64,000 nt of DNA, taken from contig OZ360231.1 in assembly GCA_977017645.1 (NCBI GenBank), forward strand, positions 54,932,001 through 54,996,000, in the 5' to 3' direction. This DNA is from Torpedo marmorata (lineage: Eukaryota). Below the pieces are notes generated by a model. It ran no database searches. It saw only the letters and a list, made by a program, of their open reading frames with translations, and was not told the DNA's origin. Position 1 is the stretch's first letter; the number at the start of each line of letters is the position of its first letter. This document shows positions 25,853-54,602 of this stretch, one piece after another. The position numbers and the translations under genes were made by a program.

Positions 25853-27210
25853 AGAAAGGTCTGGATGACCACTTGAATCACCCAGGCAGAGAAGGCTGCA
25901 GGCCAAGTGCTGGAAGATGAGATTAATATGGATGGGTGTACATGTAGGCCAAATAGCCTGCTTCCATGTTGTGTAACTATATGACTTTAGCAGGGAAGAA
26001 CCTAACTAGGGCTATTAATTAAAATGGATTGAAGAAATCCAACAGGAATTCAGAAGAAATCCTTTTACCATAAGAATTGTGAGCATGTGGAGCTGGTTAT
26101 AACAAGTACTTGAAGGGAACTCAAGGAGTAAATGTAGAGGAAGGGAATAGAGGGTTGCACTGATCTGTTTTCCTGAGGAATAATGTAGAAAGATCAAGTT
26201 GAGCAAAAATACCAAATGGCCTGCTTCTGTGTAACATCAACTATATAACATCACATACAAATTACTTTAAAATTGACTTAATAATTTATTAAATATGCAA
26301 GTCACTCTTATCACAAGGAGTCAGATTTGGTTTATTTTTTGCAGATGTAAATGATCAGATGCTGGAATCTGGAGAAAAAGAACACCTTCCTTACTTATCA
26401 CCATACTGCCCTCTCCCCGTCACTCATTTTCATCCCTCCCCGCCTGTCTCCTGGTCCAATCCACTTACTGCTAATGTTATGGACCATGACTGACCATTTG
26501 GACTGCGGACGGTCAGCAGGAAGGATGAAGTCTTTTGGAGTACACACTGGGACCAGGTACTGAAAGAGTTAACTTGCCCAGGACTTGGTGTACCCAGAGA
26601 GAGAGAGAGAGAGCAGAGAGAGACAGGCTGTGGAAAAGATACTTTGTTGCACTTTTGCAAAAGCAGGTGCAGACCTCTGCAAAAAGCAGACAGTTGGGAG
26701 TTGCAAAGGCTAGAGAACACAGCCAAATCCAGGCTTGTGCATCCCAGAGAAAAGGCTGGAAGAATAGCACATGGCCTCCTATCTCAGAGAAATTCTGAGT
26801 TAAAAGCAACTTCTGTGGAGAACAGGCGTGAGATCAGCGAGACCAGCTGTGAGATCCAAGCACACGCCTTTATCAGTGGTATACTGATCTGAATTCGCAA
26901 ACCTTATGAAAACACAAGAAGGGTGTGGTAAACCACTTTAGTATGTATATATGTATTGTGGCCTGAGGCAAGTATGACCATGACCTGTCTGTCTGTCCCG
27001 GTGACTCCTCCCCCCTTTCCCCTGGAATAAAGGCCTTGAGCCATTGACTCCTCCCTCAGTTCCGGGACAATCCAGCAGGGATCACCAGGTCAAAGTGTAG
27101 CTTAGCCCTGGCCTGATTTCTGGTATTAAAAGCCTATTGATTTCCTGCACTTCCAGACTCGCGTCTGTCATTGATAGGTACATCAATTTTAATACCAGTT
27201 TTAAAATCCG

Positions 27211-28236
27211 ATGGAGAATTTTCTGAGGCCGGACAAGCTGGACATCGACCCCCTGGCTCAAGACGCTGCAAGTGACTTTGAACTCTGGCTGCGCTGCTTC
27301 GTAGCCTTCCTGAGGTCGACCAGAGCGGTTACAAACGAGAATAAACTCGACATCCTCATGTCCAGGGTAAGCAAACGAGTGTATGGCACTGTCAGAGACT
27401 GTGATACCTATGAGGATGCCTTGGAAGCCCTCCGAAGGCTGTACCTGACGCCGGTGACCGAGGTTTTCGCGAGGCACCGGTTATCGCAACGGTACCAGCG
27501 ACCCGGAGAGTCGATCTCTGAATATATCCAGGACGTGATGCTCCTGGTGCGGGCGTGCGATTGCCGAGCCCTGACGGCTGAGCAACACGCCGAAATATTG
27601 GCAAGGGACACGATCATTATGGGGCTCAGGTCGGTTTACATTCGCCAGCGATTGCTGGAACACGCCGACCTGACCCTGAGATCTACCGTTCAGAATGCCC
27701 TCACGCTGGAATCGGCGCTCAAGAACGCTGACGCTATGCAGGCGCAGCCTGCCTCTTGGATCGCCCCAACCGCCAGCCCTGCAAGCAACGCGACGGCCGC
27801 TGCCGTCTACCGGGACCCGCTCGCCGCCGCCGACGCTATCCGTGAGTTGGCCGCTGCCGCCGCTACCCGGGAGCCCGCCGCCACCCGTGAGTTAACCGCT
27901 GCCGCTGTCACCCGGGAGCCCGAGAAGTGCTACTTCTGCGGGCTCGACAAACACCCACGCAAGCGCTGCCCGGCCCGAGACGCGACTTGTTCTAGCTGCG
28001 GCAAGAAAGGCCACTACGCAAAGGCCTGCCGCTCCAAGTCGCGTACGGGTCCGAGCAGCGCCGCGTGCGAAGTAAGGGAGCGGCCATCTTACCTGTCGTC
28101 ACTTCCGGCGGAGACCTCGTGCGAGGAATGGAGGCGGCCATCTTGGCCTTCAGCACTTCCGGTTTCAAGCAGCGCCGCGTGCGAAGTAAGGGAGTGGCCA
28201 TCTTACCAGTCGTCACTTCCGGCGGAGACCTCGTGA
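27211..28236 (+). CDS. Gag of element A (two Cys/His knuckles)
   Basis: 341-aa ORF with CYFCGLDKHPRKRC and CSSCGKKGHYAKAC. Ends at an in-frame TGA; the frame continues open into pol. Confidence 0.88.
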   Translation: MENFLRPDKLDIDPLAQDAASDFELWLRCFVAFLRSTRAVTNENKLDILMSRVSKRVYGTVRDCDTYEDALEALRRLYLTPVTEVFARHRLSQRYQRPGESISEYIQDVMLLVRACDCRALTAEQHAEILARDTIIMGLRSVYIRQRLLEHADLTLRSTVQNALTLESALKNADAMQAQPASWIAPTASPASNATAAAVYRDPLAAADAIRELAAAAATREPAATRELTAAAVTREPEKCYFCGLDKHPRKRCPARDATCSSCGKKGHYAKACRSKSRTGPSSAACEVRERPSYLSSLPAETSCEEWRRPSWPSALPVSSSAACEVREWPSYQSSLPAETS

Positions 28237-28437
28237 GAGGAATGGAGGCGGCCATCTTGGCCTTCAGCACTTCCGGTTTCTACATTTCCGGCGCGGCCAT
28301 TTTACAACCTCGCCGCGGCTCTGCCAGCACTTCCGGCGCCGCCATCTTGTAGCGACACGTGTGCGCTACGGGAGCTGCCATCAGCGTCGGATCAAGACGA
28401 CTCGTCGGATCAAGACTACGTCTCGACCCTGGCATCC

Positions 28438-31323
28438 GTGACGCTGGATCAGAGCGCGCCCCATCAGCTGTCCAGATCGATGATGGACATACTAGTTGAG
28501 GGGCATAAGACTACCTGCCTGTTCGACACAGGCAGTACTGAAAGTTTTGTCCACCCAGACACTGCCCAGCGCTGTGGCCTCACAATTGTACCGGTAAGCC
28601 AGAGGGTGGCCATGGCGTCTGGAACCCACACAACAGACATCCGGGGGGGTTGTGTGGCGAATATAGTAGTGCAGGGCACGGAATATCGCGGGTTTTCATT
28701 GATGGTCATGCCCCGTTTGTGTGCTCCTGTATTGCTGGGACTGGACTTCCAAAGCCACCTGCGAAGCGTCACCATGCACTATGATGGGCCCCACCCCCCG
28801 ATCGTTGTGACCAACCCCCAGTACTTGAATAATACGCCCCAGACTACCTGTGGTCTCTCCACGCTGAAGACCCAACCCCCGCCACTCTTCGCCAACCTGA
28901 CCCCTGACTGTAAGCCTGTAGCGACTAAAAGTAGGCGATACAGTGCAGGGGACAGGGCTTTCATTAAGGCGGAAGTGCATCGTCTACTGGGGGAAGGGAT
29001 CATAGCACCCAGTAACAGCCCCTGGAGAGCACAGGAAGTCGTGGTGAAGAACGGGGCTAAGAGCCGGATGGTGGTGGACTATAGCCAGACCATTAACCGG
29101 TTCACGCAACTGGATGCCTATCCGCTGCCGAGAATCGCGGATATGGTCAACCAGATTGCGCAGTATAAAGTATTCTCCACTATTGACCTAAAGTCGGCTT
29201 ACCACCAGCTTCCGATTCGCCGGGAAGACCGAGCGTACACCGCTTTCGAGGCGGACGGCAGATTATTCCATTTTCTGCGCGTCCCCTTCGGGGTAACAAA
29301 TGGGGTATCCGTGTTTCAACGGGAGATGGACAGGATCATTGACCAGTTCAAACTCACTGCCACCTTCCCGTACCTGGACGACATCACCATTTGTGGTCAT
29401 GATCGCCAGGATCACGATAGGAACCTTCGGAAGTTCCTACAGGCGGCTAAGACGCTGAACCTCACCTATAACGAGGAGAAATGCGTGTTCGGGACTACCC
29501 GACTCGCTATCCTGGGGTGCGTCGTGGAGAACGGGGTGATTGGACCCGACCCCGACCGCATGCGCCCCCTATTGGAACTTCCGATTCCCCTCACCCCCAA
29601 AGCCCTTAAACGATGCCTCGGGTTCTTCTCGTATTATGCGCAGTGGGTCCCAAACTACGCGGACAAAGCCCGACCCCTCGTCAAGTCCACCAAGTTTCCC
29701 CTTGCAGCGGAGGCACGTGAGGCTTTCGACCTCATAAAAGGGGACATCGCCCGAGCAGCGATGCACGCGGTGGACGAGTCGGAACCTTTTCAGGTGGAGA
29801 GTGACGCCTCGGACTTCGCACTGGCTGCTACCCTCAACCAGGCGGGAAGACCGGTAGCGTTTTTCTCCCGCACCCTTCAAGGCCCCGAAATTCGGCACTC
29901 CGCGGTAGAGAAAGAGGCCCAGGCCATTGTTGAGGCTGTTCGGCACTGGAGGCACTATCTCGCCGGAAAACATTTTACCCTGCTGACGGACCAGCGCTCC
30001 GTCGCATTCATGTTTAACAGCCAGCAGCAGGGTAAAATCAAGAATGACAAAATCATGAGGTGGAGAATAGAACTCTCCACCTACAATTACGACATCATGT
30101 ACCGGCCCGGGAAGCTCAACGAGCCCCCTGACGCTCTATCCCGGGGATCGTGCGCCAGCGCGCAGATCGACCGGTTATACTCCCTACACAACGACCTCTG
30201 CCACCCAGGAGTCACCAGGCTGTTCCACTTCATCAAAGCACGGAACCTGCCTTTCTCCCTGGATGAGGTCAGAACCATGACCAGCAGCTGCCGAGTCTGT
30301 GCGGAATGCAAACCGCAGTACTACCGCCCCGTCAGAGCACAGCTGGTCAAGGCCACACGCCCGTTCGAACGTCTCAGTGTAGACTTCAAGGGCCCCCTTC
30401 CCTCCACGAACCGCAATGTGTACTTCCTTAACATCTTCGATGAGTACTCGCGGTTCCCCTTTGCCATCCCCTGCCCAGATACCTCGGCGGCTTCGGCTAT
30501 CAAGGCCCTCCGCCAGGTATTCACCTTGTTCGGGTTCCCCAGCTATATCCATAGCGACCGGGGATCCGCGTTCATGAGCGAGGAGCTGCGACAGCATTTG
30601 CAGACCCGAGGCATCGCCACCAGTAGGACCACGGGGTACAACCCACGGGGGAACGGACAGGTAGAGAGGGAGAACGCCACTGTATGGACAGCTACACTAC
30701 TGGCCCTGAAATCAAAAGGGTGGCCAGTGGCCCGCTGGCAGGAGGTTCTCCCGGACGCCCTCCACTCTATACGATCCCTCTTATGTACTGCCACTAACGC
30801 TACCCCTCACGAACGTCTCTTTTCCTTTCCCAGAAAATCGACTACCGGGACTACCCTCCCTGCCTGGCTGACGTCCCCGGGACCGGTGCTACTCCGCAAA
30901 CATCTTCGGAGTAGCAAGTACGAGCCCTTGGTCGAGAGGGTGCAGCTGATCCATGCGAACCCGCAGTACGCATTCGTGGTTTTCCCCGACGGGCGGGAAG
31001 ACACGGTGTCAATACGGGACCTGGCGCCTGCAGGAGCGTCAGAAGAGGTCCCCGACAGCGGGAACGCCGGGTCACAGCTGCCCCCTCCGGCCCATCCGCC
31101 TCCCAGCACGGCGGGTACAACGCCCCGGCCGGAGCTGGAAAGGCCACAAGCCAGGCAGGAGGCAAACCAGACCCAGACCCACCCTACAACACCTACTCCC
31201 ATTCCACAACCACAACCATCTCCGCAGGCATCACGTACCCTCATTCCACAACCACTACCATCACCGCTGGTACTACGCAGGTCACAGCGGCGAATCCGGC
31301 CGCCGGTTAGACTCAACCTGTAG
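28438..31323 (+). CDS. Pol of element A (protease, RT, RNase H, integrase)
   Basis: LFDTGS; YPLPRI...DLKSAYHQ...PFG...YLDD; ESDAS; HHCC; VDFKG...HSDRG...GQVER. Same frame as gag. Confidence 0.93.
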   Translation: MTLDQSAPHQLSRSMMDILVEGHKTTCLFDTGSTESFVHPDTAQRCGLTIVPVSQRVAMASGTHTTDIRGGCVANIVVQGTEYRGFSLMVMPRLCAPVLLGLDFQSHLRSVTMHYDGPHPPIVVTNPQYLNNTPQTTCGLSTLKTQPPPLFANLTPDCKPVATKSRRYSAGDRAFIKAEVHRLLGEGIIAPSNSPWRAQEVVVKNGAKSRMVVDYSQTINRFTQLDAYPLPRIADMVNQIAQYKVFSTIDLKSAYHQLPIRREDRAYTAFEADGRLFHFLRVPFGVTNGVSVFQREMDRIIDQFKLTATFPYLDDITICGHDRQDHDRNLRKFLQAAKTLNLTYNEEKCVFGTTRLAILGCVVENGVIGPDPDRMRPLLELPIPLTPKALKRCLGFFSYYAQWVPNYADKARPLVKSTKFPLAAEAREAFDLIKGDIARAAMHAVDESEPFQVESDASDFALAATLNQAGRPVAFFSRTLQGPEIRHSAVEKEAQAIVEAVRHWRHYLAGKHFTLLTDQRSVAFMFNSQQQGKIKNDKIMRWRIELSTYNYDIMYRPGKLNEPPDALSRGSCASAQIDRLYSLHNDLCHPGVTRLFHFIKARNLPFSLDEVRTMTSSCRVCAECKPQYYRPVRAQLVKATRPFERLSVDFKGPLPSTNRNVYFLNIFDEYSRFPFAIPCPDTSAASAIKALRQVFTLFGFPSYIHSDRGSAFMSEELRQHLQTRGIATSRTTGYNPRGNGQVERENATVWTATLLALKSKGWPVARWQEVLPDALHSIRSLLCTATNATPHERLFSFPRKSTTGTTLPAWLTSPGPVLLRKHLRSSKYEPLVERVQLIHANPQYAFVVFPDGREDTVSIRDLAPAGASEEVPDSGNAGSQLPPPAHPPPSTAGTTPRPELERPQARQEANQTQTHPTTPTPIPQPQPSPQASRTLIPQPLPSPLVLRRSQRRIRPPVRLNL

Positions 31324-32232
31324 ACATAATAATGACTATGTAAATAATCTATGTTTATTTGTGTTTTTTTAATTACGGTATCCACTTCACCCCCCCGTCG
31401 GACTTGTTCTAAAAGAAGGGGTGAATGTGGTAAACCACTTTAGTATGTATATATGTATTGTGGCCTGAGGCAAGTATGACCATGACCTGTCTGTCTGTCC
31501 CGGTGACTCCTCCCCCCTTTCCCCTGGAATAAAGGCCTTGAGCCATTGACTCCTCCCTCAGTTCCGGGACAATCCAGCAGGGATCACCAGGTCAAAGTGT
31601 AGCTTAGCCCTGGCCTGATTTCTGGTATTAAAAGCCTATTGATTTCCTGCACTTCCAGACTCGCGTCTGTCATTGATAGGTACATCAAAGGGAACGTCAT
31701 CAGAGAAGAAAAACAAGTATTTGTAAGCATAAACAGTCATTGTCTCTCTCCAACGTTCATTCAGAAGTACTTCTACCAGCACACCAAGCTGAATTTGAAA
31801 CCTGAACTTAGAGAGTGGAATTTTGTGGACTGTATTATTCTTTTTTTGACTGACTTGTTTTTATGACTGACCTGGGGTTTTTTGGGGAAAGTTTTTCCAT
31901 TTTTACATAAGGGTTGGGCACAGACTGTATGGTCTGGGCTTTACACACACACACCTTTTAGATAAGAATAGTGTTTATAGATGTTTATAGTGGGGTTAAT
32001 TGTTGTGAAATATATGTTTAATTGTGTTTAATAAATATAAATTTCAATTTTACCCCTTTTGCATTGCGTCTTCTGTCATTGCTGGTTTGATTTTGTAACA
32101 AAATTGGGGGCTTGTCGTGGGATTTGAATCAAAATCCATCTTGGTAATTGAAGGAATTCCAGTTTGGTTTAAGGCATTCCTTTTGTAAAGCTAATTAAAA
32201 GCTAGTGTGTGTGTAACGAAAAACCAGCAACA

Positions 32233-34036
32233 ATGGATGTAGAACATTTTTTGGAATCACCTGAACCTGATACTTTAAAAAAGGCGAAAAAGGAACAGTT
32301 AGTGGCTATAGCAACAAAGCTGGGCATTGCTTCTGTAAAAGCATCTATGAAAAAGGCAGAGATTGGGAGAAAAATTGTCAAATACTATATAAAAGAAAAA
32401 AAGTTTGAGGAGAGCATGTGAGAGCAGTTTCCCAAGGGTAAACCTTCTGAAAACATACAGTTGGAACTAAAGAAATTGGAATTGGAGGCAGCCAGGGAAC
32501 AAAAGAAATTAGAATTGGAGGCAGAAAGAAATTAGACATGGAAATGGAACAAAAGAAATTTGACATGGAATTGGAATTGGAACAAAAGAGATTAGACTTA
32601 GAGAACGATGAGAAAAATAGGAGATATGAGCTGGAAAAGATGAGGTTGGAAAATGAGAGGAGACAAGAAGAGCACCAAGATCAAATTCGTCATCCTGCTG
32701 TGGGGTTTTTGGCTAGTAGGGAAGTTAGGTTGGTTCCTCCATTTGAGGAGGCAGAAATAGATAAGTACTTCCAACATTTTGAGAAGGTGGCTGTAAATTA
32801 AAATGGCCACAAGACCAATGGTCTCTTATGTTACAAAGTGTAATTAAAGGAAAAGCTCAGCAAGCTTATTGTACTGTTACCACGGAGCAAGCTGCTGATT
32901 ATGAAACGGTAAAAAAGGCTATAGTCCAGGCTAATGAATTAGTTCCAGAGGCTTATAGACAGAAGTTTAGAAATTTAAAAAGATTAGCAACCAAATCTTA
33001 TACAGAGTTTGCCTATGAAAAGGTTGTGTGTTTTGACAGGTGGTGCACATCTAAGGCGGTAAACAATGATTACAATCAATTGAGAGAATTGATAATAATC
33101 GAGGAGATAAAAAGGTGTGTTCCTGAGGATATTAAGGCATACTGAGATGAAAAGGAGGTGAAAACTTGGCAAAATTCAGCTAAGTTAGCAGATGAATATG
33201 CTTTAACCCACAAGCCTAAGTGGACGTCAGGTAGAATTTTCCAAAAGGTCACTGTGGATAATCAGAAGCAAGTGGAAAGTAAGTTTGGAAGTGATGTTAA
33301 GAAAAGGGATGAAGGAAAGTGGAAAAGGGAAAACCATTTGGGTCCCATTTGCCACTACTGTAGGAAGGCTGGTCATATGATAGCAAGCTGTCCAGTGTTG
33401 AAAAAGAAGAGAGAAAAGGATGCAACACCTAATGCTTGTAATCAGAGTGAGAAGAGGGATAACACCCAGGAAGGAGATAAATTTACTGACAAAGTTAAAG
33501 ATGTATTTAAACCTTTTGTGACTGATTGTTTTGTTTCAGTTAAGGCAGGATCAAAACAAGTTCCAGTGAAAATCTTGCGAGATACTGGAGCCGCTCAGTC
33601 ACTTGTGTTAGATAGTGTCTTGGAATTTTGTGAAGCTACTGACACCGGTGACATAAATTTAATTAAAGGAATTAGTGGTGATGTTGAGTCCATTCCTTTG
33701 CACAAAATATTATTGGACTAAGGCTTGGTGGAAGGACCAGTTATAATAGGAGTGAGATCAGAGTTGCCAGTAGAAGGAGTCTCACTGTTGTTAGGCAATG
33801 ACTTGGCCAAGGGTAAAGTAGTTCTTGCAGTGCGAATGACCACTAAGCCAGTCATTGATAAGTCAGAGAAAGACTCTGATATTTATCCGGCATGTGCCAT
33901 AACCAGGGCCATGTCTAAGAAAAATGTCACTGTAGAGAAGGCAGTGGAAAATAACATGGTGAAAAAAAAAGACAGTGATAATCAAGAAAAACTGGAAAAG
34001 GTTGAGCAATCTCCTATGTTACACCCATCCACTGAT
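32233..34036 (+). pseudogene. disrupted gag/protease of the Gmr1-like element
   Basis: PPFEEAEIDKYFQHFEKVA, KGKAQQAY...ELVPEAYRQKFR (SCAN-like capsid), CHYCRKAGHMIASC and ILRDTGA, with several stops and frameshifts. Confidence 0.85.
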
Positions 34037-34050
34037 AAGACACCTAAAGG

Positions 34051-37000
34051 TACCACCACCACTTTAGCGGTTGTACCGCTTCTCGAGCGACGGAGGGGGG
34101 TAGCACTGGGATATATACAGTCCAGTGTTAATTATGGGATGTTCTTTTTTCTTGCTTTTCTATTATTTCACTCTATTTGAGGAGAAAATATGTAATCAAC
34201 GGAATAGGAGGGATGCGTCGGCGGATCTGACAGATAGAGAATGTTTAAAATTTAATTATGGTTGATTCTAGAAGTATTAATTTTGTAAGTATTAATGTTA
34301 ACGGGCTTAATAATCCAATTAAAAGGAAAAAAACTTTGGCATATATTAAAAAATTAAAAGTAGATATAGCTTTTTTACAGGAAACACATTTGACTGATAA
34401 AGAACATCAAAAGTTGAAGAGAGAATGGGTAGGACATGTAGTAGCTTCGTCTTTTAATTCTAAAGCGAGAGGAGTAGCAATTTTAATCAATAAAAAATTA
34501 CCATTTAAAATACAATCAGTAATGACGGATATAGCTGGTAGATTTGTTATGGTGCATTGTCAAATCTATTCAGAAACATGGACTTTTTTAAATTTATATA
34601 TTGTAAACCCAGAGGATGAACAATTTATTCAAGATATCTGTTTACATTTATCTGAAGCTAAGGAAAATATTTTAATTGGGGGAGATTTTAATTGTTGTCT
34701 TAATACGAATATGGATAAAACATCTAAAACATCTGTTAAACCTAAAATAGTTAAAAGAATTATTAATTTAATGGATGATTTAAATTTAGTAGATATTTGG
34801 AGAAAGGTAAACCCTAGAGAAAAAGATTATTCATTTTATTCTTTTCGACATAACTCATTCTCGAGGATTGATTTATTTTTAATATCGTCACAAATTCAGG
34901 ATAGAATAACTCAAATTTCTTATAAAGCAAGAATAATTTCAGACCATTCACCGTTATTAATGACTTGTATAATTCCAGAGAAAGAAAAAACTGTATATAA
35001 TTGGAGATTAGATTCTTCTTTATTAAATAGAAAAGATTTTTGTGATTATATGAGAAAAGAAATTCAGGAATTTTTAAGAATTAATAATAATTCAGTTGAT
35101 GATAAGTTTATAATTTGGGAATCTTTAAAAGCATATTTAAGTGGATTGATAATAAGCTTCTCGGCAAAAATTAGAAAAGATTATTTGAAGGAAGAAGAAA
35201 AATTGGAGGGGGAGATTGAAGTTATGGAAAAAGATTTTCAAAGAAACAAAACAATTCTTAAGAGACAACGTTTAATGGGGAAAAAATTACATTATAATAT
35301 ATTACAAACTCGAAAAATGGAAAAATTAATTGGTAGAACAAAGCAAAGATATTATGAATTGGGAGAAAGAGCACATAAAGTTTTAGCATGGCAATTAAAG
35401 AAAGAACAAGTTTCCAAAACTATAAATGCTATAAAGAAAAGTAATGGAGATATAACTTATAAACCTCAAGAAATAAACAATTCTTTTAAAGAATATTATC
35501 AAAATTTATATACTTCACAAATGAGTCAAGATGTTGTAAAAATTGATGATTTTTTATCCAAAATTATGTTGCCCAAATTAAATAGTTCTAATAGAGATTT
35601 GTTAGATCTACCAATTACAATGAGAGAAGTAGGTGAAGCTTTATCATCATTGAATAGTGGTAAATCTCCTGGTGATGATGGATTTCCTGTAGAGTTTTAT
35701 AAGAAGTTTAAAGATTTATTGATACCTATATATATGGAAGTATTGACTCAAATAAAGGAAACTCAGTTATTACCGAAAACTTTTTTAAATGCTGTTATTA
35801 CAGTTATACCAAAGAAGGATAGAGATGTATTGAAAACTGAATCGTATAGACCTATATCATTGTTAAATGTAGATTATAAATTAATGGCGAAAATCTTGAC
35901 AAATAGACTAGCTAAGTTTTTACCATTTTTAATACATCCAGATCAAGCAGGATTTATTAAAAATAGATATTCAAAGGATAATATAGCAAGATTAATAAGT
36001 TTGATTAATTTACAAAAGAAGAAACAGGATTTACCGTTAGTGATAGCATTAGATGCAGAAAAAGCATTTGATAGGTTAGAGTGGAAGTTTTTATTTAAGG
36101 TTTTAGAGAAATATGGATTTGGAAATACGTTTATAAATTGGATTAAAACTATATATAAGGAACCTATAGCTAAAGTAATTACAAATGGTCAAATATCATC
36201 TAAATTTTCTTTGACACGGTCAACAAGACAAGGATGTCCATTGTCACCTGCCTTATTTGTATTGGCAATAGAACCGTTGGCGGAAATGATCAGGAAAGAT
36301 ATGAATATAAAAGGGATAAAAGTAGGTGCAGAAGAGCATAAAATTAGTTTGTTTGCAGATGATGTATTAATATATATGACAAAGTCTATTGAATCACTTC
36401 AACAATTAGATAAAATATTGAGGGATTATGGTGAAATATCTGGATATAAAATAAATTCGGATAAAAGTGAGATAATGGCTTTATCTCAAGGAGATTATAC
36501 TAAATGTAAAGAAGTTACAAAATTTAAATGGGCTAAAGAAGCTATTAAATATTTAGGAGTTAAAGTGGATACAAAGTTAGAAAATTTATATAAATTAAAT
36601 TACATACCTTTATTTCAGAAAATAAAGAAGGATTTGGATAATTGGAAAGATTTACCTATAACTTTAATAGGAAGAGTGAACTGTATTAAAATGAATATTT
36701 TTCCAAGAGTTCAATATCTTTTTCAATCTATACCTTTTGGTATTCCTCAAAATTTTTTTAAAGATTTAAAAAGTATTATTAGAAAGTTTTTATGGAAAGG
36801 AAAACTGGCAAGAGTAAGTATGGATAAATTAACTTGGGAATATGAAATGGGTGGATTACAACTTCCTAATTTTCAATATTATTATAAGGCAGCACAATTA
36901 AAATTTATAAATGAATTATTTGATTTAACTAAAAACACGGCATGGATTAATATAGAATTAAGTAATATAGGAGAAAGAAATAAGGAAGATATTATTTATA

Positions 37001-38329
37001 AATGGAATTCTAAATTATTATTGATTAAAAAGAAAAAGTCACCGATTATTAGACATTTATTAGAGATTTGGAATCAATTAGATAATGAAATAGGGCGAAA
37101 AGGATCAATCTCTTTAAATATGCCATTATATCAGAATTTATTATTACCATTTTCTATGGATAATCAATTTTTAAAATTATGGTATCAAAAAGGAATTAAG
37201 AAGATTAAAGATTGTTTTGAGGCAGGAAGATTTGTTACTTTTTCCAGATTGAAAGAAAAATTTGGAATAATGGATAATACAATTTTGGCTTATTATCAAG
37301 TTAAAGGATTTTTAGTTGAGAAATTAGGGAATCAATTAATATCTCCTAGACAGGATGGGTTAGAGTTACTAATTACTAATGGAAATGTTAATAAATTTAT
37401 ATCGTAAATGTATAAATTATTTCAGAAAAAGATACCTAAAGTAGGATTGCATAAATCTAGATTAAATTGGGAATCAGATCTAAATACTAATATAGATGAA
37501 CAACACTGGAAAGAATTGTGTAAATTGAGTATGACTAAGATTATTAATGTTAGATATAGATTAGTACAGTATAACTTTTTTCATCAATTATATATAACAC
37601 CCAAAAAATTAAAGAAATTCAATCCGGCATTGTCAGATATGTGTTTTAGATGTAAAGATGAAATAGGTTCTTTTGTACATTGTACATGGTCATGTTTGAA
37701 AATTAAAAATTTTTGGTCTAAAGTCAAAGATTTTTTAGATAGAATTTTTAATATTATGATTCCAATGGATCCTATGATATTTTTATTTGGAGATATAAAA
37801 AAAATGAGTATTGGAAATAGATTAAATATGTACCAAATAGAATTTTTACGAATTGTGTTAGCTATTTCAAAAAAATGTATTGCTATTACTTGGAAATCAG
37901 ATTTAGATTTGAATTTAGATAGATTACATGCAGAGTTACGTTCTTGTATACCACTCGAAAAAATTACGTATAATTTACGAGACAAATATCATTTCTTTTT
38001 GAAAATTTGGAGCCCATATATGAGAATTATGGGTATGAATTAATTCTCTAAAAGTTAGTACCGCTGACAAAAGTATCCTCCATATACAAATAGAGTTAGT
38101 CTGAAATAGTTTTCTCCTCATACTAACTCTCTTAACTTTATTTCTCATTCTATTTCTTTCCTTTTAACTAACATTTCTATATATTCTTTTTTTTTTCTCT
38201 TTATTAGAATAGTGTGGGAGGGAGGGAATGGGGGATGGTAAAAATATCACATGTATTTTGAATAATATATTATTTTTGACTAAGTATTTTGTGATTTTAA
38301 AAATTAAATAAAAATGAAAAAAAAAAAAA
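34051..38329 (+). mobile_element. L1/Tx1-like LINE with full-length ORF2, truncated upstream of ORF2
   Basis: 14-bp TSD AAGACACCTAAAGG at 34037-34050 and 38330-38343; poly-A tail; no ORF1. Confidence 0.95.
34258..38043 (+). pseudogene. L1-like ORF2 (APE endonuclease, RT, cysteine-rich region) with one in-frame stop
   Basis: NVNGL, LQETH, GGDFN, SRID, SDH; DAEKAFD, RQGCPLSP, FADD. TAA at 37405-37407 where the copy near 978 has CAA. Confidence 0.9.
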
Positions 38330-38478
38330 AAGACACCTAAAGGCACAGATTTGTCACTATCCCGACAGGAGTTAACAGCAAGGCAAAAGGACGATCCTGA
38401 TCTTGCTGAGGTGAGGGATAAGGTTCTCTCTGAAGAGGAGATTAAAAAGGTGCCAGTGGGTTATTATGAAAAAGATGG

Positions 38479-40392
38479 GTGTTGATGAGAAAGTGGAGAC
38501 CATGTGATGTTCCTGCCAATGAAGAATGGGCAGTAGTGCAGCAGGTTGTGATCCCTAAAGTATATAGGGATGCAATAATAACTTTGGCTCATAGTACACC
38601 CTTGGGTGATCACCTTGCGGTGAAGAAAACTATAAGGAAGATAATGAAACAATTTTATTGGCCCAGTTTGAGAAGGGAGGTGATAAGCTTTTGCCGGGCC
38701 TGTCACACTTGTCAGGTAGTGGGTAAACCTAATCAGGGTCCCCCGGTGGCACCCTTGCAACCTATCCCTGCTTTCAGTGAGCCTTTCTCGAGAGTAATTG
38801 TGGACTGTATTGGCCCATTGCCCAAAACCAAAGCGGGGAATGAGTATTTGTTAACAATTATGTGTGCAGCCACCAGATTTCCAGAGGCCATTCCTCTGAG
38901 AAACATTAAAGCAAAGACAATTGTAAAGGCAATGGTAAAGTTTTTCACCTTGGTAGGTTTGCCAAGGGAAATTCAATTAGATCAGGGCAGTAATTTCATG
39001 TCAGGCGTTTTCCAACAAGTGGTTGATGGACTGGGAGTTAATCAGATTGTATCCTCTGCGTACCATCCAGAAAGTCAAGGGGCCTTGGAGAGGTTCCATT
39101 CGACTTTGAAAAACATGATTAGAACCTATTGTTGTGAAAAGGAAAAGGATTGGGATGAGGGGGTTCATTTCTTGTTATTTGCAGCGAGGGAGTCTGTCCA
39201 AGAATCACTTGGTTTTAGTCCATTCGAGTTAGTTTTCGGACATGAGGTGAGAGGTCCTTTAAGATTATTAAAAGAACAGTTGATTAATAGTGATGTGCAT
39301 TTAAATCTGTTAGATTATGTTTCAAAATTTAAGTATCGGTTGAATAGGGCTTGTGAGATGGCAAAGGAGAATTTAAAGGCCACTCAACAGAGAATGAAGG
39401 TTTGGTATGATCGAAAGGCTAAGATGAGAACTTTTAAACCTGGTGAGAATGTATTAGTTCTGTTTCCCATCCATTCAAATCATCTTAGGGCTAGATTTTC
39501 AGGACCCTATAGAGTTAAGTCAAAAATTAATGATGTCACTTATGTCATAGAAACACCTAATCGCAGACGAGACACACAGGTCTGTCATGTAAATATGATT
39601 AAGCCATATTTTGAACAGGTGCCGCAAAAAGGGACTGAACATTTACCAGAGGTACTGGTTATTGACAGGGGTAAGGAGGAGACAGATAAAACCAGATTCA
39701 GAGAGGGTCATGGGACTGTTCATTCTCGGGGTTATGTAGTAGGACAGGGGAAGTTGGCGCCAGTAGAGGCAAAGGTTGTGACTATTTCCGAGTTCCCTGT
39801 TCCAACTGGTAAGAAAACTCTGAGGAGGTTCCTGGGAATGATTGGCTACTACCGCAAGTTCTGTAAAAACTTTGCTGATCTTGCGCTCCCTCTCACAAAT
39901 TTGCTTAGAAAGAAAGAAAAATTTGTATGGTCGACAGGTTGTCAGGAAGCATTTGTCAAATTGAAAGCCATGTTATGCCACCAACCTGTGCTTAAGTCAC
40001 CTAATTTAGAACAGCCGTTTTCTTTAGCCGTGGATGCCAGCGATGAAGCTGTGGGCGCGGTACTGTTACAGAAGAAGAACGAAGAGGACATTGACCATCC
40101 GGTATCCTACTTCTCGAAGAAGTTCAATGATCATCAAAGGAATTATTCAACCATAGAAAAAGAATTGTTGGCTCTTGTGTTGGCTCTACAACACTTTGAT
40201 GTGTATATCTCTACAGCTCAAAAACCACTCATAGTGTATACTGACCATAATCCATTGGTTTTTCTTTGTGAAATGAAAAATAAGAATCGACAGTTGTTGA
40301 ATTGGAGTCTAATTTTGCAAGAATATGATTTGGTAATCACACATATAAAAGGTAAAGATAATGTAATTGCTGATTGTCTTTCGAGATGTTAA
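38479..40392 (+). pseudogene. integrase fused to an RT C-terminal remnant and RNase H of the Gmr1-like element
   Basis: H..H..CHTC, IVDCIGPLP, LDQGSNF, GALERFH, then GYVVGQG...RRFLGMIGYYRKF...AVDAS...ADCLSR. The RT core (YxDD) is absent. Confidence 0.88.
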
Positions 40393-42260
40393 ACTTTATC
40401 AATGAAAGTAGTTCATATTTTGTATATGTGGATGAACATTGTAGATTTTGTTTATATTGTGACACCTCAATTACTTTCCAAAATTTTGTTCTTGCAGACC
40501 AAAATTTTCTTTGTGGGTGGGAGGTGTTATGGACCATGACTGACCATTTGGACTGCGGACGGTCAGCAGGAAGGATGAAGTCTTTTGGAGTATACACTGG
40601 GACCAGGTACTAAAAGAGTTAACTTGCCCAGGACTTGGTGTACCCAGAGAGAGAGAGAGAGAGCAGAGAGAGACAGGCTGTGGAAAAGATACTTTGTTGC
40701 ACTTTTGCAAAAGCAGGTGCAGAACTCTGCAAAAAGCAGACAGTTGGGAGTTGCAAAGGCTAGAGAACACAGCCAAATCCAGGCTTGTGTATCCCAGAGA
40801 AAAGGCTGGAAGAATAGCACATGGCCTCCTGTCTCAGAGAAATTCTGAGTTAAAAGCAACTTCTGTGGAGAACAGGCGTGAGATCAGCGAGACCAGCTGT
40901 GAGATCCAAGCACACGCCTTTATCAGTGGTATACTGATCTGAATTCGCAATCCTTATGAAAACACAAGAAGGGAACGTCATCAGAGAAGAAAAACAAGTA
41001 TTTGTAAGCATAAACAGTCATTGTCTCTCTCCAACGTTCATTCAGAAGTACTTCTACCAGCACACCGAGCTGAATTTGAAACCTGAACTTAGAGAGTGGA
41101 ATTTTGTGGACTGTATTATTCTTTTTTTGACTGACTTGTTTTTATGACTGACCTGGGGTTTTTTGGGGAAAGTTTTTCCATTTTTACATAAGGGTTGGGC
41201 ACAGACTGTAATGGTCTGGGCTTTACACACACACACACACCTTTTAGATAAGAATAGTGTTTGTAGACGTTTATAGTGGGGTTAATTGTTGTGAAATTAT
41301 ATGTTTAATTGTGTTTAATAAATATAAATTTCAATTTTACCCCTTTTGCATTGCGTCTTCTGTCGTTGCTGGTTTGATTTTGTAACACTAACACATTTCC
41401 CCCACTGAATCCCCACCCCCAACTGATTCCATCTTCCCTCATGGTTCCCAGTATCATGGCAAAGCACTGGTAGCCTTTGTGTTACTGCTCATCACTCTCC
41501 AGCAGCCATTCCACCTTCACTCTCCTCCCACCCCCAAAATCTGGCTCCATCTATCCTTTTTCCCCCCACCCATCACCCACTTGTTTCTGTCTCTCAACTC
41601 TACCCCTTCCCCACTTGGTTCATCTATCCATCATCCTTCTCCCCTCCCATCATCTACTGACCCATCACACCTCTGCCCCTCTCCCCTTGGGCAGTGTACC
41701 TTCCCTCTGCACTCTTAGACCCAATACAGGGTCTCGACCCAAAACGTTGATGATTCCTTTCCCTCCCCCCTGCCCCTCACATATGCTGCTCACTCCACTG
41801 AGTTCCTCCAGAAATTTGTTTTTTATTTGCTAAAAATTGTAAACAATTCTGCAGTCTCACCAAGGAACCAATTTCCAAGTGTGATTTCACCAAGACCCTA
41901 TTATAATTGTATTATCTTTACTCGTACTCAAATCCTCTTGCAATTTCCCACATTTTTTTTCTCAAATGACACACATGCAGCTGACATTTCTAATTACTTG
42001 GTTATATCAATGATGGACAGCAGACAGAATAGGTATTAATGTGAATAATGTTCACTCCCATTCTATGGCAAGACTGTAACATATTCCTTGTTCTAATTTG
42101 AGGTTTCCTTCCTTTGTTTCCTATCCTTGCCAACATGAGGAATATGGATCATTATCAGGAAAAACAGTACCTTGCGTGGGTCTGGCAGATGGAGTGCAAT
42201 GTTGGTAAACGTGAGGTTATCCATTTTGGAAGGAAAAATAGAAGGTCAGCTTATTATTTA

Positions 42261-47310: not shown

Positions 47311-49447
47311 TCCTGCAGTTGGCCATGGCAACGGCAGAGGATGACAACAGCAGAAACCAGGATCTTTGCTAGGACATCCCAGTAAACTTCGATATTAGCA
47401 TTTAGGTAGAAGACTTGCCCACTGAGAAGCAGCAAAGAATATGGGAAGCCTTTCAAGCCCAAAAAATGCAGAGACTGGTAAAGCCTAGCTCAGGCATAAG
47501 TCAAATGACATTACACGTTATTGCTACAACATGATTTACGGCAGATAGAGTGGTCAGTACCAATGGAACATCACATATTGTAATCAAAGGAGTTTGTGTG
47601 CACATTCATTACATCTGTGTACTTTGCCACCTTGAACAGAATGACATGCCTTACGTGGCCGTTCAAGTTCACGTTTATAGTCACATGTACCAAAATGCAA
47701 TGATAGAGGTTGTTTTGCGAGCAGACCAGCTGACATCTCATATATAGTTCAACAAGACACAATACAAAAGTGCAGAGCAACTGAGAGAGATCAATTGTTA
47801 CAGATCAAAGACAACATACAGTAGTTTTACTATTTTGGGATTCCTTCAGGAGTCTGATAATGGCAGGAAAGAAACCATCCTTGAATCTGGTGGTACATGA
47901 TCTCATTCTTGTGAATCTTCTTCCTGATGGAAGAGAGTTCAAAGAGCATGGCTAGGGTGGTAGGAAAATTTTAATATGTTGGCTGCTTTTTCAAGACAGT
48001 GGGAGTTGCAGATGGAGTCGATGGAGGGGAGGAGGGTGGTGGTATGTGTGATGACCTGAGCCACGGTCACAACCCTCTGTAGTTCCTGCACCACATTGTA
48101 ATGCACCTTGACAGGATGTTTTCAATATCATTCTGCATGTGACAGAAATGAAAGTAAAAATGGCATGGAAGGAAGGAGTCCATTCAAAACACTACCCATC
48201 CACTATTAAACAATATTTCTTTATTTTTATACATGTATAAACGTACTGCATATGTATCGTTTGTCTGTATGCGTGTTTGCATGTTTTTGCTCCAAGGACC
48301 AGAGAACGCTGTTTCATTGGGTTGTATTTGTACAATTGGACGACAATAAACTTGAACTATCCACACTTGTTGCCCTGTACAGGCTGCCCTTGTACAAATA
48401 CAGGTACAGCAATCTTTCTTGGGCTCTCACTGGCTTTGAAACTGGCATCACTTTACCAGGAATAAAATACAGTATGTCTCAATCTTTTTGATTCTTGATT
48501 CCGCTGCATATCACACCAGATAGATTGCCATTCACTTTGCTTTCTTGGATTGGGTGTGACAGCACCCACTCAGTTTGGTTTAACACAAGAGTTGATGCTT
48601 ACAGAACTTTAAATCAGTAATTTTGGAGTTAGGGTGGAATGGTGAAAGAGTGACCATTGCATGTGCCTTGCCATTGGTCAACTGGTACAATCTAAGTGAA
48701 CCTTAATCTTCTGCCTCCACTTCTTACTCACATTCACCTAAAAAGAATCCAAGCTCCACGTCTTGTTCTCCCTGCCAGTCCAAACCTCACTTCCATAAAA
48801 TATTTTTATTTATTCAAGGAATATGAGCTTCACAGTCTGAGCCACTATTTAATTGCCCATTCCCAATTGCCCTTGAGTAGGTGGTGGTGATCCGTCCTCT
48901 TGAACCGCTGCAGTCCTTGACATATGGGCATACCCACAATGCCACTAAGGAGCTAGTTTCAGGAATTTGACCCAGCCACGTGAAGGAATGGCAGTCTATT
49001 TCCAAGTCAAGATGGTGTGTGGCTTGGAGGTCAAATTCCAGATGGTGATATACCCATGCTTTTGTTGCCTTTGTCCTTCTTGCTGTAATCATGGTTTGGA
49101 AGGTGCTGTCTTATAAGCTTGGGTGAGTTGCTGTTGTGCATCCTGAAGAGGGTACAAGCTGCTGCTTCTGTGCATTGGTGGTAGAATGTGTAAATGGTTG
49201 TGTATGCACTGCCTATCATGTAGGCTTATGTCCTGTATGGTGTCGAGATTATTGAGTTTTGTTGAAGCCGTACTGATCCAGGCAAATGGAGAGTATTCAA
49301 TCACTCTCCTAACTTCAGCCTTGTCGATCGTGGAGAGGCTTTGGAGAGTTAGGAGGTGAGTTAGTCACCACAGGATTTCCAGACTCTGACCTGCTCTTAT
49401 AGCTACAGTGTGCACGTAGCCACTCCAGGTCAATGCAGCACACCATG

Positions 49448-52400
49448 TGTGGTAAACCACTGTTACATGTATTGTGGGCTGGGGATAAGTCTGGGCATGT
49501 CCTGCTGTCTGTCCCGGTGGCTCCTCCCCCTTCCTCCCCCGAATAAAGGCCCTTGTGCCACTGCTCCACCCCCAGTCCGGGATAGATCAGCAGGTCTCAG
49601 CAGGTCAACTGCAGCTCCCTTTTATAGCTAATAAAAGCCTACTATTCTTGCACTACTTCCTGCCTCTCGGGAATCATTGATAGGCCTATCAATTTTATTA
49701 GCTATAAAGTCTGATGGAGAGCGTCCTGAGACCGGATAAGTTAGACATCGATCCTCTAGCTCCAGACGCCGGTAACGCTTTTGAACTCTGGCTGCGTTGC
49801 TTTGAGTCCTTCTTAAGGACGATCAAGGTGAAAAACGAGGACGAAAAACAGACGATCCTCGTGTCCAGGGTAAGCCCTCGGGTATACTCGACAATCCGGG
49901 ATTGTCAAACGTACGAGGAGGCTATGGACGCTTTGAAAAGACTGTACATAATGCCCGTGAACGCGGTCTACGCAAGGGACAGGCTATCAACGCGGCAGCA
50001 GCGGCCCGGGGAGTCGATCTCTGAATTTGTACGAGATATACAGTCGCTGGTGCGGGCGTGCGATTGCAGAGCGCTGACGGCTGAGCAGCATGCGGAACTG
50101 CTGGGGAGAAATCAGGTCGGTATACGTGGGCCAGCGGCTGCTGGAGCACGCCGACCTGACTTTCCGTTCCGCGGTTCAACTGGCCCACACGCTGGAGGCC
50201 GCGCTGCGGAACTCTGATGCTATGCAAGCGCGCGACCTTCAGCCGGCCTCGTGGACAGCCCTGACACCCAACCCTGCCGGTGATCTGACCACTGCCGCCG
50301 TCTGCCGCGACCCGATCGCCGCCGCCGCCATCCGTGAACTGACCGCTACAGCCGTTAACCGAGAGCCCAAGAAATGCTATTTCTGCGGGCTCGAGAAGCA
50401 CCCTTGCAAACGCTGCCAGGCCCGAGACGCGACCTGCTCCAGCTGCGGCAAGAAAGGCCATTACGCAAAGGCCTGCCGCTCTAATCCGCAAGCGGGTCCG
50501 AGCAGCGCCGCGTGTGAGATTCGGGAGTGGCCATCTTACCTTCCGTCACTTCCGGCGTTGTACTCACCCACGGTTGCGACCTCGTGGAAGAGTGGAGGCG
50601 GCCATCTTGGACACCGGTACTTCCGGCTCTGCCATCTTACAGCTCCACATCGGCACTTCTGGCACTTCCGGCGCCGCCATCTTGCAGCTCCAGCCATGAC
50701 ACGTGCGACTCACGGAGGCGGCCATCTTCTTCAGCGCCGGATCAAGACTACATCCTGACCCTAGCATCCGTCACCCTCGACCAGAGTGCACCCCACCAGC
50801 TGTCCCGATCCATGATGGACATCCTGGTTGAGGGGCACAAGACCACCTGCCTGTTCGATACAGGCAGCACGGAGAGCTTTATACATCCGGACACAGTACA
50901 GCGATGTGGCCTCACTACAGTACCGGTAAGCCAGAGGGTGGCCATGGCTTCCGGGTCGCACACAATGGACATCCGGGGGGGTTGTGTAGCGAACATTGTA
51001 GTACAGGGCACAGAATGCCGGGACTTTTCATTACTTGTCATGCCTCGTTTGTGTGCGCCGGTACTACTGGGACTTGAATTCCAGAGTCACCTACGAAGTG
51101 TCACGATGCGCTACGACGGGCCCCACCCTGCAATCATGGTAGTTAACCACCAGTATCTTAACAACGGGCCTCAGACTACCTGTGGCCTCTCCACACTTAA
51201 GATCTCGCCCCCGTCGCTATTAGCCAACCTGACCCCTGACTGTAAGCCCGTGGCAACTAAGAGCAGGCGACTATTGGAGGAGGGGATCATCAAACCGAGT
51301 AATAGCCCCTGGAGAGCCCAAGTAGTCATGGTAAAGAACGGGGCCAAGAGCAGGATGGTGGTGGACTATAGTCAAACGATCAACAGGTTCACACAACTGG
51401 ACGCATACCCGTTACCACGAATCGCGGATATGGTGAACCAAATAGCCCAGTACAGGCTATTTTCGACTATAGACCTTAAGTCAGCTTATCACCAGCTCCC
51501 TATCCGCCGGGAGGACCGCACGTACACCGCTTTTGAGGCGGATGGCAGGCTGTTTCATTTCCTGCGTGTCCCCTTCAGAGTCACAAATGGGGTGTCCGTG
51601 TTCCAGCGGGAGATGGACAGAATAGTTGACCAATTTAAGCTCAAAGCCACCTTCCCATACCTGGACGACATCACCATATGTGGTTATGATCGCCAGGACC
51701 ATGATAATAACCTTCGGAGGTTCCTGCAGGCGGCCAAGGCGCTAAACCTCACATACAATAAAGATAAATGCGTGTTCGGGACCATCCGACTCGCTATTCT
51801 GGGGTGTGTCGTTGAGAACGGGGTTATTGGACCCGACCCCGACCGCATGCGCCCCCTGCTGGAACTTCCGCTTCCCCACACCCCCAAAGCCCTTAAATGA
51901 TGCCTGGGGTTCTTCTCGTACTATGCGCAGTGGGTCCCTAATTACGCGGATAAAGCCCGATCCCTTGTCAAGTCCACCACGTTTCCCCTTGCATCGGAGG
52001 CACGTGAGGCTTTTGATCTCATAAAAGGGGACATTGCCCGAGCAGCAATGCATGCGGTGGATGAATCGATACCTTTCCAGGTGGAGAGTGACGCATCAGA
52101 CTTCGCGCTGGCTGCTACCCTCAACCAGGCGGGAAGACCGGTGGCATTCTTCTCACGGACCCTCCAAGGCCCCGAAATTCGGCACTCCGCGGTTGAGAAA
52201 GAGGCCCAGGCCATAGTGGAGGCTATTAGGCACTGGAGGCACTATCTCGCCGGTAAGCACTTTACCCTGCTGACGGATCAACGCTCTGTTGCGTTTATGT
52301 TTAACAACCAGCAGCGGGGTAAGATCAAAAACGATAAAATCATGAGGTGGAGAATAGAGCTCTCCACCTACAATTACGATATCCTGTACCGACCCGGGAA

Positions 52401-53936
52401 GCTCAATGAGCCCTCCGATGCTCTATCCCGGGGATCGTGCGCCAGCGCGCAGATCGACCGATTGTACTCCCTCCACTGTGACCTCAGCCACCCAGGAGTT
52501 ACCAGGCTGTTCCACTTCGTGAAAGCCAGGAACCTGCCCTACTCCCTGGAAGAGGTCAGAACAATGACCAGCAGTTGCCGAGTCTGCGCGGAGTCCAAAC
52601 CACAATTCTACCGCCCCGACAAGGCACAGCTGGTCAAAGCCACCCGCCCTTTTGAACGACTCAGCATCGATTTCAAGGGCCCCCTTCCCTCCACGGACCG
52701 CAATGTGTATTTCCTCAATATCATTGACGAATACTCGCGGTTCCCCTTTGCCATTCCCTGCCCCGATACCTCGGCCATCTCTGCCATTAAAGCTCTTCGC
52801 CAGATATTTACTCTATTCGGCTTCCCCAGCTATATACATAGCGACCGGGGATCAGCTTTTATGAGCGAAGAGCTACGACAGTACCTGCAGGCCCGGGGCA
52901 TCGCCACTAGTAGGACCACGGGGTACAACCCACGGGGCAACGGACAGGTGTAAAGGGAGAACGCCACCGTTTGGAAAGCCACGCTCCTAGCCCTCAAGTC
53001 AAAAGGGTTGCCGGTCTCCCGCTGGCAGGAAGTTCTCCCGGAGGCCCTCCACTCCATCCGGTCCCTGCTGTGCACTTCTACTAATGTCACCCCCCACGAA
53101 CGACTTTTCTCCTTCCCCAGGAAGTCGACCACCGGAACCACCCTACCTGCTTGGCTGACGTCCCCGGGAACTGTGCTGCTCCGCAAGCACCTTCGGAGTA
53201 GCAAATACGAACCCATGGTCGAGAGGGTGCAGTTAGCCCATGCTAACCCTCAGTACGCCTACGTGGTCTTCCCTGATGGGCGGGAAGACACCGTATCGAT
53301 ACGAGACCTGGCGCCCGCAGGAGCACCGGGAGAGGCCCTCGACAATGAAAACCCCTTGTCGCAGCCCCCCCCACCCCCCCAGCACGACAGCCCCAGCACC
53401 CTCGCCGGTGCCGGATGTACTGCAAGCCAGGCAGGAGGCAACTCTGCTGCAAACCAGGCAGGAGACAACCCTGCCATCCCCCCTATCACCACAGCCCGCC
53501 CCGTCACCACGGGTACTGCGCAGGTCGCAGCGGCGGATCCGACCGCCTGATCAGCTCGACCTGTAAATGTATATATGTATATATTTGTATATATCTGTTT
53601 TACACTTTGTATTTTACTCTCCATTGTATTTGTAAGATAACCACAGTGGCCACGTCACCCCGTTGGACTCTTTTAAAAAAAGGAGGGGTGAATGTGGTAA
53701 ACCACTGTTATATGTATTGTGGGCTGGGGATAAGTCTGGGCATGTCCTGCTGTCTGTCCCGGTGGCTCCTCCCCCTTCCTCCCCCGAATAAAGGCCCTTG
53801 TGCCACTGCTCCGCCCCCAGTCTGGGATAGATCAGCAGGTCTCAGCATGTCAACTGCAGCTCCCTTTTATAGCTAATAAAAGCCTACTGTTCTTGCACTA
53901 CTTCCTGCCTCTCGGGAATCATTGATAGGCCTATCA
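49448..53936 (+). mobile_element. small Gypsy LTR retrotransposon (element B, older relative of A)
   Basis: 244-bp LTRs 49448-49691 and 53693-53936 (5 substitutions counted). 5-bp TSD CCATG. PPT AAAAAAAGGAGGGG. Confidence 0.96.
49714..53566 (+). pseudogene. disrupted gag-pol of element B
   Basis: Fragments 49714-50217, 50090-50758, 50527-51900, 52048-52953 and 53008-53550 are highly similar to element A. Frameshifts, stops at 51898 and 52951, and a short deletion at the RT start. Confidence 0.9.
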
Positions 53937-54602
53937 CCATGATAATGCTTTGGCGCTGCTGTTACATTCCAAAGAACTGAAGCACATCTTCAGCTTACAA
54001 TGGTTAGTTTAATCCCAAATGGCAGATTTGTGTTATTTGTTGCAGTGTTGTTACAGTGTTGTTCGTTTTTTTTAATCAATCAGGTTACTGACTGATGTCA
54101 GAAAGCAAGTTTGAAGTATGTATCCTTTGAATGCCTCCTACCACTGCTTAATGTTGCTGCTAATTAGCTTGGAGCTTGGAATTCCACAAAGACATTTTGG
54201 TCATGTCTACCATGAATCATGCACACATCAATATAAAGATGTTTTGATAGCTGCATGCTATCTGTTTGGGAATGGGAGATCTTGCTTTGTTCCTGTGAGA
54301 ACACAGACAGTGTTAAAACTTTATAACCAACTCATTCAGATTGGATTCATCCTCAATAAAGATGACATAATTGTCAAATGTTTGAAACAGGATATCAAAC
54401 TAATGTGCAAATGGTTGGGAAATTCAGGCAAAATCTTGAATCAGAAGGGCACACTAGATTGAATAGAACGTAGAACAGTCCAGCACCTTCGACCACAATG
54501 TTGTGCCCACTGACATAAACCTACTTCATGATTAATCTAACCCTTTCCTCCCTCACAGTCCATAAACTCCCATTTATAATAATTGGTATGTTTTCCACTA
54601 TA

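Follow-up and report, generated by a model that had tools for sequence, protein, structure and literature searches.

Probable Tf1-like self-priming in a Ty3/Gypsy clade of Torpedo marmorata without a chromodomain, and the origin of covariation between its LTR and PBS

Experimental proof of self-priming is confined to the fission-yeast retrotransposon Tf1 in the literature available to us; elsewhere, it has been linked to chromoviruses and to a single copia lineage of plants. In Tf1, a self-primer of 11 nt is cut, according to the accessible text of PMC7175516. About half of Tf1 cDNA retains a copy of the PBS at its 3' end, and Tf1 RT adds non-templated bases (PMC11042837, available text). In HIV and MLV the plus-strand PBS is copied from the primer, and Ty1 and Ty3 inherit the PBS strictly (PMC7472051, in the sections available); primer copying is thus not general among LTR retrotransposons.

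The window, by which we mean the whole 64-kb stretch of Torpedo marmorata DNA that was analysed, contains two elements relevant here, A and B. Element B is a Ty3/Gypsy element, as judged by its TG..CA LTRs, TSD, PPT and Pfam order PR-RT-RH-IN. It belongs to a compact clade with a single ORF. Its 5' and 3' LTRs differ at 5 of 244 sites. The gag of the clade has two CCHC knuckles, which we take to resemble those of Mag gag. The gag-pol of element B gave no match to a chromodomain or a Tf2-type SH3 domain, a search of Rfam gave no match, and there is no tRNA gene within the 64-kb window. The ATG follows ~22 nt after the LTR, with no other primer site in between. The features are as follows.

49448-53936, + strand: element B, Ty3/Gypsy, flanked by a CCATG duplication
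49443-49447, + strand: TSD CCATG (second copy, 53937-53941)
49448-49691, + strand: 5' LTR of element B, 244 nt, TG...CA
49541-49549, + strand: candidate TATA-like box GAATAAAGG, found in 164/173 copies
49573-49577, + strand: candidate initiator CAGTC
49621-49636, + strand: LTR segment pairing with the PBS, predicted self-primer (family core, 49623-49636)
49630-49635, + strand: AATAAA inside the paired LTR segment of element B
after 49636, + strand: predicted primer cut of element B
49637-49641, + strand: GCCTA, 5' arm of the inner helix
49657-49673, + strand: apical hairpin TTCCTG/CGGGAA (arms 49657-62 and 49668-73), weakly supported across families
49676-49693, + strand: LTR-end palindrome, an alternative short hairpin
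49681-49685, + strand: TAGGC, 3' arm of the inner helix, within the LTR-end palindrome
49693-49708, + strand: PBS position, 1 nt past the LTR (core 49693-49706; letters beyond the core vary)
49714-53550, + strand: gag-PR-RT-RH-IN of element B, five open frames split by frameshifts and stops
53676-53688, + strand: polypurine tract of element B
53693-53936, + strand: 3' LTR of element B, with the paired segment but without a PBS partner
27120-27198, + strand: element A, with paired segment 27120-27131 (contains ATTAAA), LTR end 27185 and PBS 27187-27198

An earlier note on this DNA had reported that the 16 nt at 49693-49708, one base past the LTR end at 49691, match the reverse complement of the LTR segment TTTATAGCTAATAAAA (49621-49636) exactly. 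We confirm this. Shuffling the 25 post-LTR bases 2000 times never gave as many as the 16 bp of element B, and 0/2000 were as good as the 12 bp of element A (27120-27131 / 27187-27198). The region folds with z scores of -3.66 (element B) and -3.44 (element A). The length of 16 bp is exact for element B, but the constant helix of B-type copies is 14 bp, with positions 15-17 variable. The statement that both strands differ between A and B while pairing stays perfect is correct as to the pairing, but only four of the 12 shared pairs differ (positions 6, 9, 11 and 12 from the LTR end), all of them on both sides. Contrary to the same note, the inner helix does not differ in sequence: GCCTA is identical in A and B, and only its partner varies (TAGGC/TAGGT). 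The proposed apical hairpin exists in element B but is weak across families (mean z -0.4; 5/17 below -1).

Copies were gathered from the genome by likeness to B, likeness to A (60 loci were selected by likeness to A or B), a pattern, and two divergent gag queries. The degenerate gag-start pattern has 9,276 matches in the genome. There were 189 distinct copies with a gag start and enough upstream DNA, of which 173 could be parsed; the other 16 were left out because a parsing anchor was mutated or deleted. The constant helix measures 14 bp in B-type families, 12 in element A and 18 in a distant family of the same clade (family C, L228-L254), where the 18-bp pairing occurs in 14/24 loci and the helix ends in AGTAAA. 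Positions 1-7 complement AATAAAA or ATTAAAA with very little variation, although this invariance, like that of GCCT, is partly due to the parsing anchors. The paired segment contains a poly(A)-type hexamer in 169/173 copies (AATAAA in 128, ATTAAA in 41). More than 20 different LTR segments are found in this one genome, each with its own perfectly matching PBS. None of these 12-14-mers starts with TGG, and a control Gmr1-like Gypsy family of the same genome, with a PBS starting TGG, self-pairs over only 4-9 nt. These observations support the earlier conclusion that the primer is not a fixed tRNA.

Metagenome data yielded 47 loci, 20 with a gag start, of which 19 could be scored; 15/19 pair over 13-19 bp with their own LTR and 4/19 do not. 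The pairing copies represent eight LTR types, three of them close kin, and 14 of the 15 have RCCT directly 3' of the paired segment. Four metagenome copies have a common mismatch at position 14. At the site of the hexamer the metagenome relatives mostly have GTTAAA, TTTAAA or ATCAAA, with the one-base LTR spacing and RCCT kept. No relative was found in the viral contigs searched.

Covariation was analysed in 36 representatives (34 distinct), picked by gag cluster and not by pairing. RNAalifold found just the PBS helix and the stacked GCCT/RGGY helix in this set. Two-sided changes affected 8 of the 14 pairs of the PBS helix, where no pair was altered on a single side; the inner helix (GCCT/AGGY) showed no two-sided changes, and one-sided changes at 2 of 4 pairs, all via G-U. 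Paired cells amounted to 98.7%, compared with 31-46% in slid controls, and five of the top six pairs by mutual information belong to the PBS helix. Across all 173 copies, 2022/2076 cells of pairs 1-12 are Watson-Crick (97%) and 4/2076 are G-U. All four pair types occur at position 8. The inner helix, by comparison, has fixed G-U pairs in 61/173 and 37/173 copies. On the gag tree of the 173 copies, the two sides changed together in 31 of 46 possible instances, compared with 2-6 in slid controls; relatedness among copies inflates this and all the preceding covariation counts.

What maintains the match? The earlier note saw selection for an RNA structure rather than a primary sequence. This is half right: positions 8-14 do show two-sided changes, but positions 1-7 and GCCT are near-invariant. 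Compensatory selection normally passes through G-U and favours transitions. A copied primer would give strict Watson-Crick pairs, substitutions of any type, and errors where copying ends. The changes seen here are strictly Watson-Crick, poor in G-U and include fast paired transversions, and agree better with a primer that is copied into the PBS than with compensatory mutation.

The most informative case is a C>A change at pair 12, present in 201 LTRs. We fetched 60 elements and parsed 58, one being a duplicate of another's flank. The letter A at LTR pair 12 occurs in 41 distinct elements, 40 of which have the matching transversion in the PBS. The 40 matched elements form one young clade (SH-aLRT 99), which differs from 12 other A copies by 9 transitions and 3 near-fixed transversions in 4085 internal columns. 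The probability of a second transversion at that one site by chance is of the order of 0.0004-0.0007, a post hoc value for a single event that was chosen after being noticed. We had expected many unconverted intermediates in this lineage, which was wrong (1/41). At position 13, the C>A clade turns to the complementary letter several times (29 complementary, 12 not; 5 steps, whereas 38/40 comparable columns need ≤4). PBS position 15 took 28 parsimony steps, the highest of 77 columns, although poorly resolved trees inflate all these step counts; it is polymorphic in 7/16 groups and LTR position -22 in 8/16, so the hotspot is not unique. Four distinct insertions (L418-L421) have a common PBS-only mismatch at pair 12 that was inherited uncorrected, and element L408 carries the LTR variant in both LTRs, unmatched by its PBS. 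Probes for rare variants at PBS position 10 (2 matches), B position 11 (3) and the inner helix (4) returned only unmatched singletons, too few to decide. Given self-priming, we favour templating over selection alone by roughly 5 to 1, and the best reading of these sequences is that the covariation is mostly templated rather than the product of classical compensatory selection. A strict Watson-Crick helix next to a wobble-tolerant neighbour could serve as a sequence-only test for a copied primer. It is also a warning that covariation scores can stem from templating and not from selection on RNA structure.

The reading we prefer, at a probability of about 70%, is that this clade, which lacks a chromodomain, primes itself as Tf1 does and has its primer copied back into the PBS. 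That the pairing is a signature of self-priming, whether or not the primer is copied, appears highly probable. The signature consists of 12-19 bp of pairing from one base past the LTR and no tRNA-type site; the paired LTR segment ends 3' in an A-run followed by RCCT, which forms a short helix with AGGY. Folding of the leader would anneal the LTR segment to the PBS, and an RNase H cut between AAA and RCCT, an activity shown for Tf1, would free the 3'-OH. Plus-strand synthesis would then copy the primer, so that one or two rounds would suffice for a mutation of the LTR segment to appear in the PBS, and frequent mutation would be expected where the copied stretch ends (positions 12-15). In vertebrate-host subfamilies, the helix may in addition hide AAUAAA/AUUAAA in the 5' LTR, leaving the signal free in the 3' LTR.

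Nearest to the view of the earlier note is self-priming with an inherited PBS, as in Ty3, where the match would be held just by selection for a perfect RNA duplex. The available text of PMC7472051 provides the Ty3 precedent, mismatches at terminal pairs are inherited uncorrected (metagenome position 14; L418-L421), and a nuclease could reject G-U pairs. We nevertheless consider this unlikely, given two complementary transversions on a branch with only 3 transversions in 4085 columns, the two-sided change of pair 12 even though it tolerates mismatches, the near absence of G-U intermediates and the four pair types at position 8. Another possibility is that the helix mainly hides the 5' poly(A) signal, while another RNA or site primes. 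The near-universal AATAAA/ATTAAA of the paired segment (169/173 copies) does fall in its invariant half. But occlusion would tolerate G-U, most metagenome relatives have GTTAAA, TTTAAA or ATCAAA and yet keep the one-base spacing and RCCT, and the ~22 nt between LTR and ATG offer no alternative primer site, all of which makes this explanation improbable.

Strict Watson-Crick co-change and paired transversions would likewise result if the two arms were a quasi-palindrome that DNA template switching or hairpin repair keeps perfect and that plays no part in priming. This would leave its fixed position at the PBS and the missing tRNA site unexplained, and the neighbouring inner helix and LTR-end palindrome stay uncorrected; we regard it as distinctly improbable. 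Least credible is priming by a tRNA or tRNA fragment at the PBS. Mag-lineage elements of similar size do use Leu, Ser or Arg tRNAs (PMC3286476, in the text available), but the PBS here lacks a TGG start and occurs in >20 sequences that each fit their own LTR.

Returning to the preferred self-priming reading, the position of the putative primer in the RNA can be considered. An upstream GAATAAAG is present in 164/173 copies, at a variable distance (78-106 nt) from the predicted cut. CAG[T/A] was found in 149 copies, and in 134 of these its A lies exactly 32 nt past the upstream AATAAA. Using an initiator consensus from the accessible part of PMC3601003, we infer that GAATAAAG and CAG[T/A] are a TATA box and an initiator, which would place the RNA start 46-74 nt before the cut. 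The paired AATAAA would then be the poly(A) signal and the primer would be internal to the leader; such a start is a poor fit to a simple 5'-terminal primer. Promoter geometry hints at a primer internal to the leader, unlike that of Tf1. The sharp ends of the helix, together with an initiator-like CCATTC that several families have 18 nt before the cut, suggest a short primer instead. The upstream AATAAA is unlikely to be the poly(A) signal under self-priming, as, with a cut between AAA and GCCT, it would leave no R homology for strand transfer.

Upstream of the primer, the leader showed no sign of structure in 18 copies (z -0.3 to +2.0). A third 'pretzel' duplex, in which post-PBS bases would pair with the LTR downstream of the primer, was not found (mean z +0.59, 29 types). 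Post-PBS bases can also pair upstream of the primer, CTCCATT with the context of the start codon, strongly so in some families but not in others (mean z -0.74). Poly(A)-tailed retrocopies ending past the second AATAAA numbered 0, compared with 19 in the reversed control; this probe, which covered the second AATAAA, is uninformative. A primer built by splicing was considered and dropped: the complement is contiguous and, by eye, the nearby YAG is not conserved. In most subfamilies an inverted repeat, CTGTCCCGG / CCGGGA[C/T]AG (49509-49517 and 49577-49585), brackets the upstream AATAAA, perhaps as a hairpin of the 3' LTR RNA or as a pair of factor sites. Family C has motifs ~90-130 nt upstream of the predicted cut that we take to be CCAAT-, GC- and TTTAAA-like.

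Putting these pieces together gives a scenario that we regard as tentative and somewhat doubtful. An animal-wide Gypsy clade would have invented self-priming independently of Tf1/sushi, with a primer cut from mid-leader: a capped RNA of ~50-75 nt that pairs with the PBS through its last 12-18 bases, these doubling in fish subfamilies as a hidden poly(A) signal. Primer copying would rewrite the PBS, so that the covariation would come from the replication cycle and mark the length of the primer.

Several other features of the window deserve mention. Element A sits within the 5' LTR of a Gmr1-like Gypsy element (26475-41387), which has integrase before RNase H, a PBS starting TGG, and a LINE inside it at about 33146-38043. 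One insertion of element A recurs with an identical flank on at least 10 loci (among them L311, L320, L332-L333 and L335-L340), and about 30 more small contigs carry the same PBS variant, as if in an amplified array. The gag of element A has a 114-bp tandem duplication (28054-28280), and a stop at 28234-28236 splits its otherwise single ORF. Among relatives of the Gmr1-like element (L276-L287), L276 contains a 1310-aa ORF, uninterrupted, in which SCAN, integrase and RNase H were matched but RVT_1 was not; an RVT_1 match is likewise absent from the window copy; judging by these domain matches, the relatives are possibly a high-copy family without a polymerase domain. A C-rich minisatellite spans 13035-13995 (30-bp unit, 32 copies, 96% matches). 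An open frame at 11339-12052 has an ALKBH8_N match and is, we assume, probably the end of a LINE.

The closest named proteins to element B are from rays and catshark (75-84%), followed by sea anemone, nematodes, mussel and arthropods (57-63%), a ranking that by itself makes a cartilaginous fish the probable host. In an RT-RH tree, the element B clade (20 rows) is separate from 14 chromodomain-bearing rows, with support of 100 and a stem of 1.74, in a quick, unrooted analysis that had no named Tf1, sushi or Mag rows and excluded L276 for too little RT. Some metagenome relatives fall beside the nematode and sea-anemone proteins. RT-RH identity to the 14 chromodomain-bearing proteins is 26-34%. 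Chromo and SH3_Tf2-1 gave no match in A, B, L290, P0012 and P0059, and none of the 15 Chromo matches in this genome is near an integrase. On these data, an origin of self-priming independent of Tf1/sushi would be likely. In the full-text literature searched, which lies outside most subscription papers and Repbase reports, we found no description of self-priming in a non-chromovirus animal Gypsy clade. The available text of PMC6934838, PMC5006619, PMC12471100 and PMC6238403 contains no description of the element B clade, and 'Selgy' and 'Cigr-1' as possible names for it led nowhere. If the element B clade, which lacks a chromodomain, has ~9,000 gag starts in one genome and is related to elements of other animals, does prime itself, then priming free of tRNA would be commoner than assumed.

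How does the element B clade compare with known systems? A PBS complementary to the own LTR is also found in Tf1/Tf2 of Schizosaccharomyces pombe, Tj1 and the Tf1/sushi chromoviruses (PMC10085805, PMC7175516, PMC4600332, PMC5341516), and Tf1/sushi elements likewise have an extra helix beside the predicted cut (PMC10085805, PMC7175516, PMC4600332), as far as the accessible text of these papers goes. The Tf1 primer is copied into cDNA ends (PMC11042837, same limitation), as proposed here. Unlike Tf1/sushi, the element B clade has no chromodomain or Tf2-type SH3 match and no third pretzel duplex, just the helix upstream of the PBS; it pairs over 12-19 bp, compared with 11 in Tf1, and its segment may not be the RNA 5' end. 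By analogy, the clade would work like Tf1, but we do not file it under Tf1/sushi because of the missing chromodomain and third duplex and its separate position in the RT-RH tree at 26-34% identity. Self-priming with the same signature has been predicted for the TAR lineage (Houba, Osr-1) of plant Ty1/copia and for the plant Tcn1 clade (PMC6317226, available sections); unlike the element B clade, TAR belongs to another superfamily and Tcn1 to a chromovirus clade, both in plant hosts. The Mag lineage of Ty3/Gypsy is similar in its size of 4-5 kb, short LTRs, 5-bp TSD and often single ORF, but the Mag elements described in the accessible text of PMC3286476 have a tRNA-complementary PBS, which the element B clade lacks. 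In the correction of the HIV and MLV PBS by a tRNA primer, finally, the template is a host tRNA, whereas the template proposed here is encoded by the element itself; the PBS would therefore be free to drift with the LTR, and not revert to a host tRNA.
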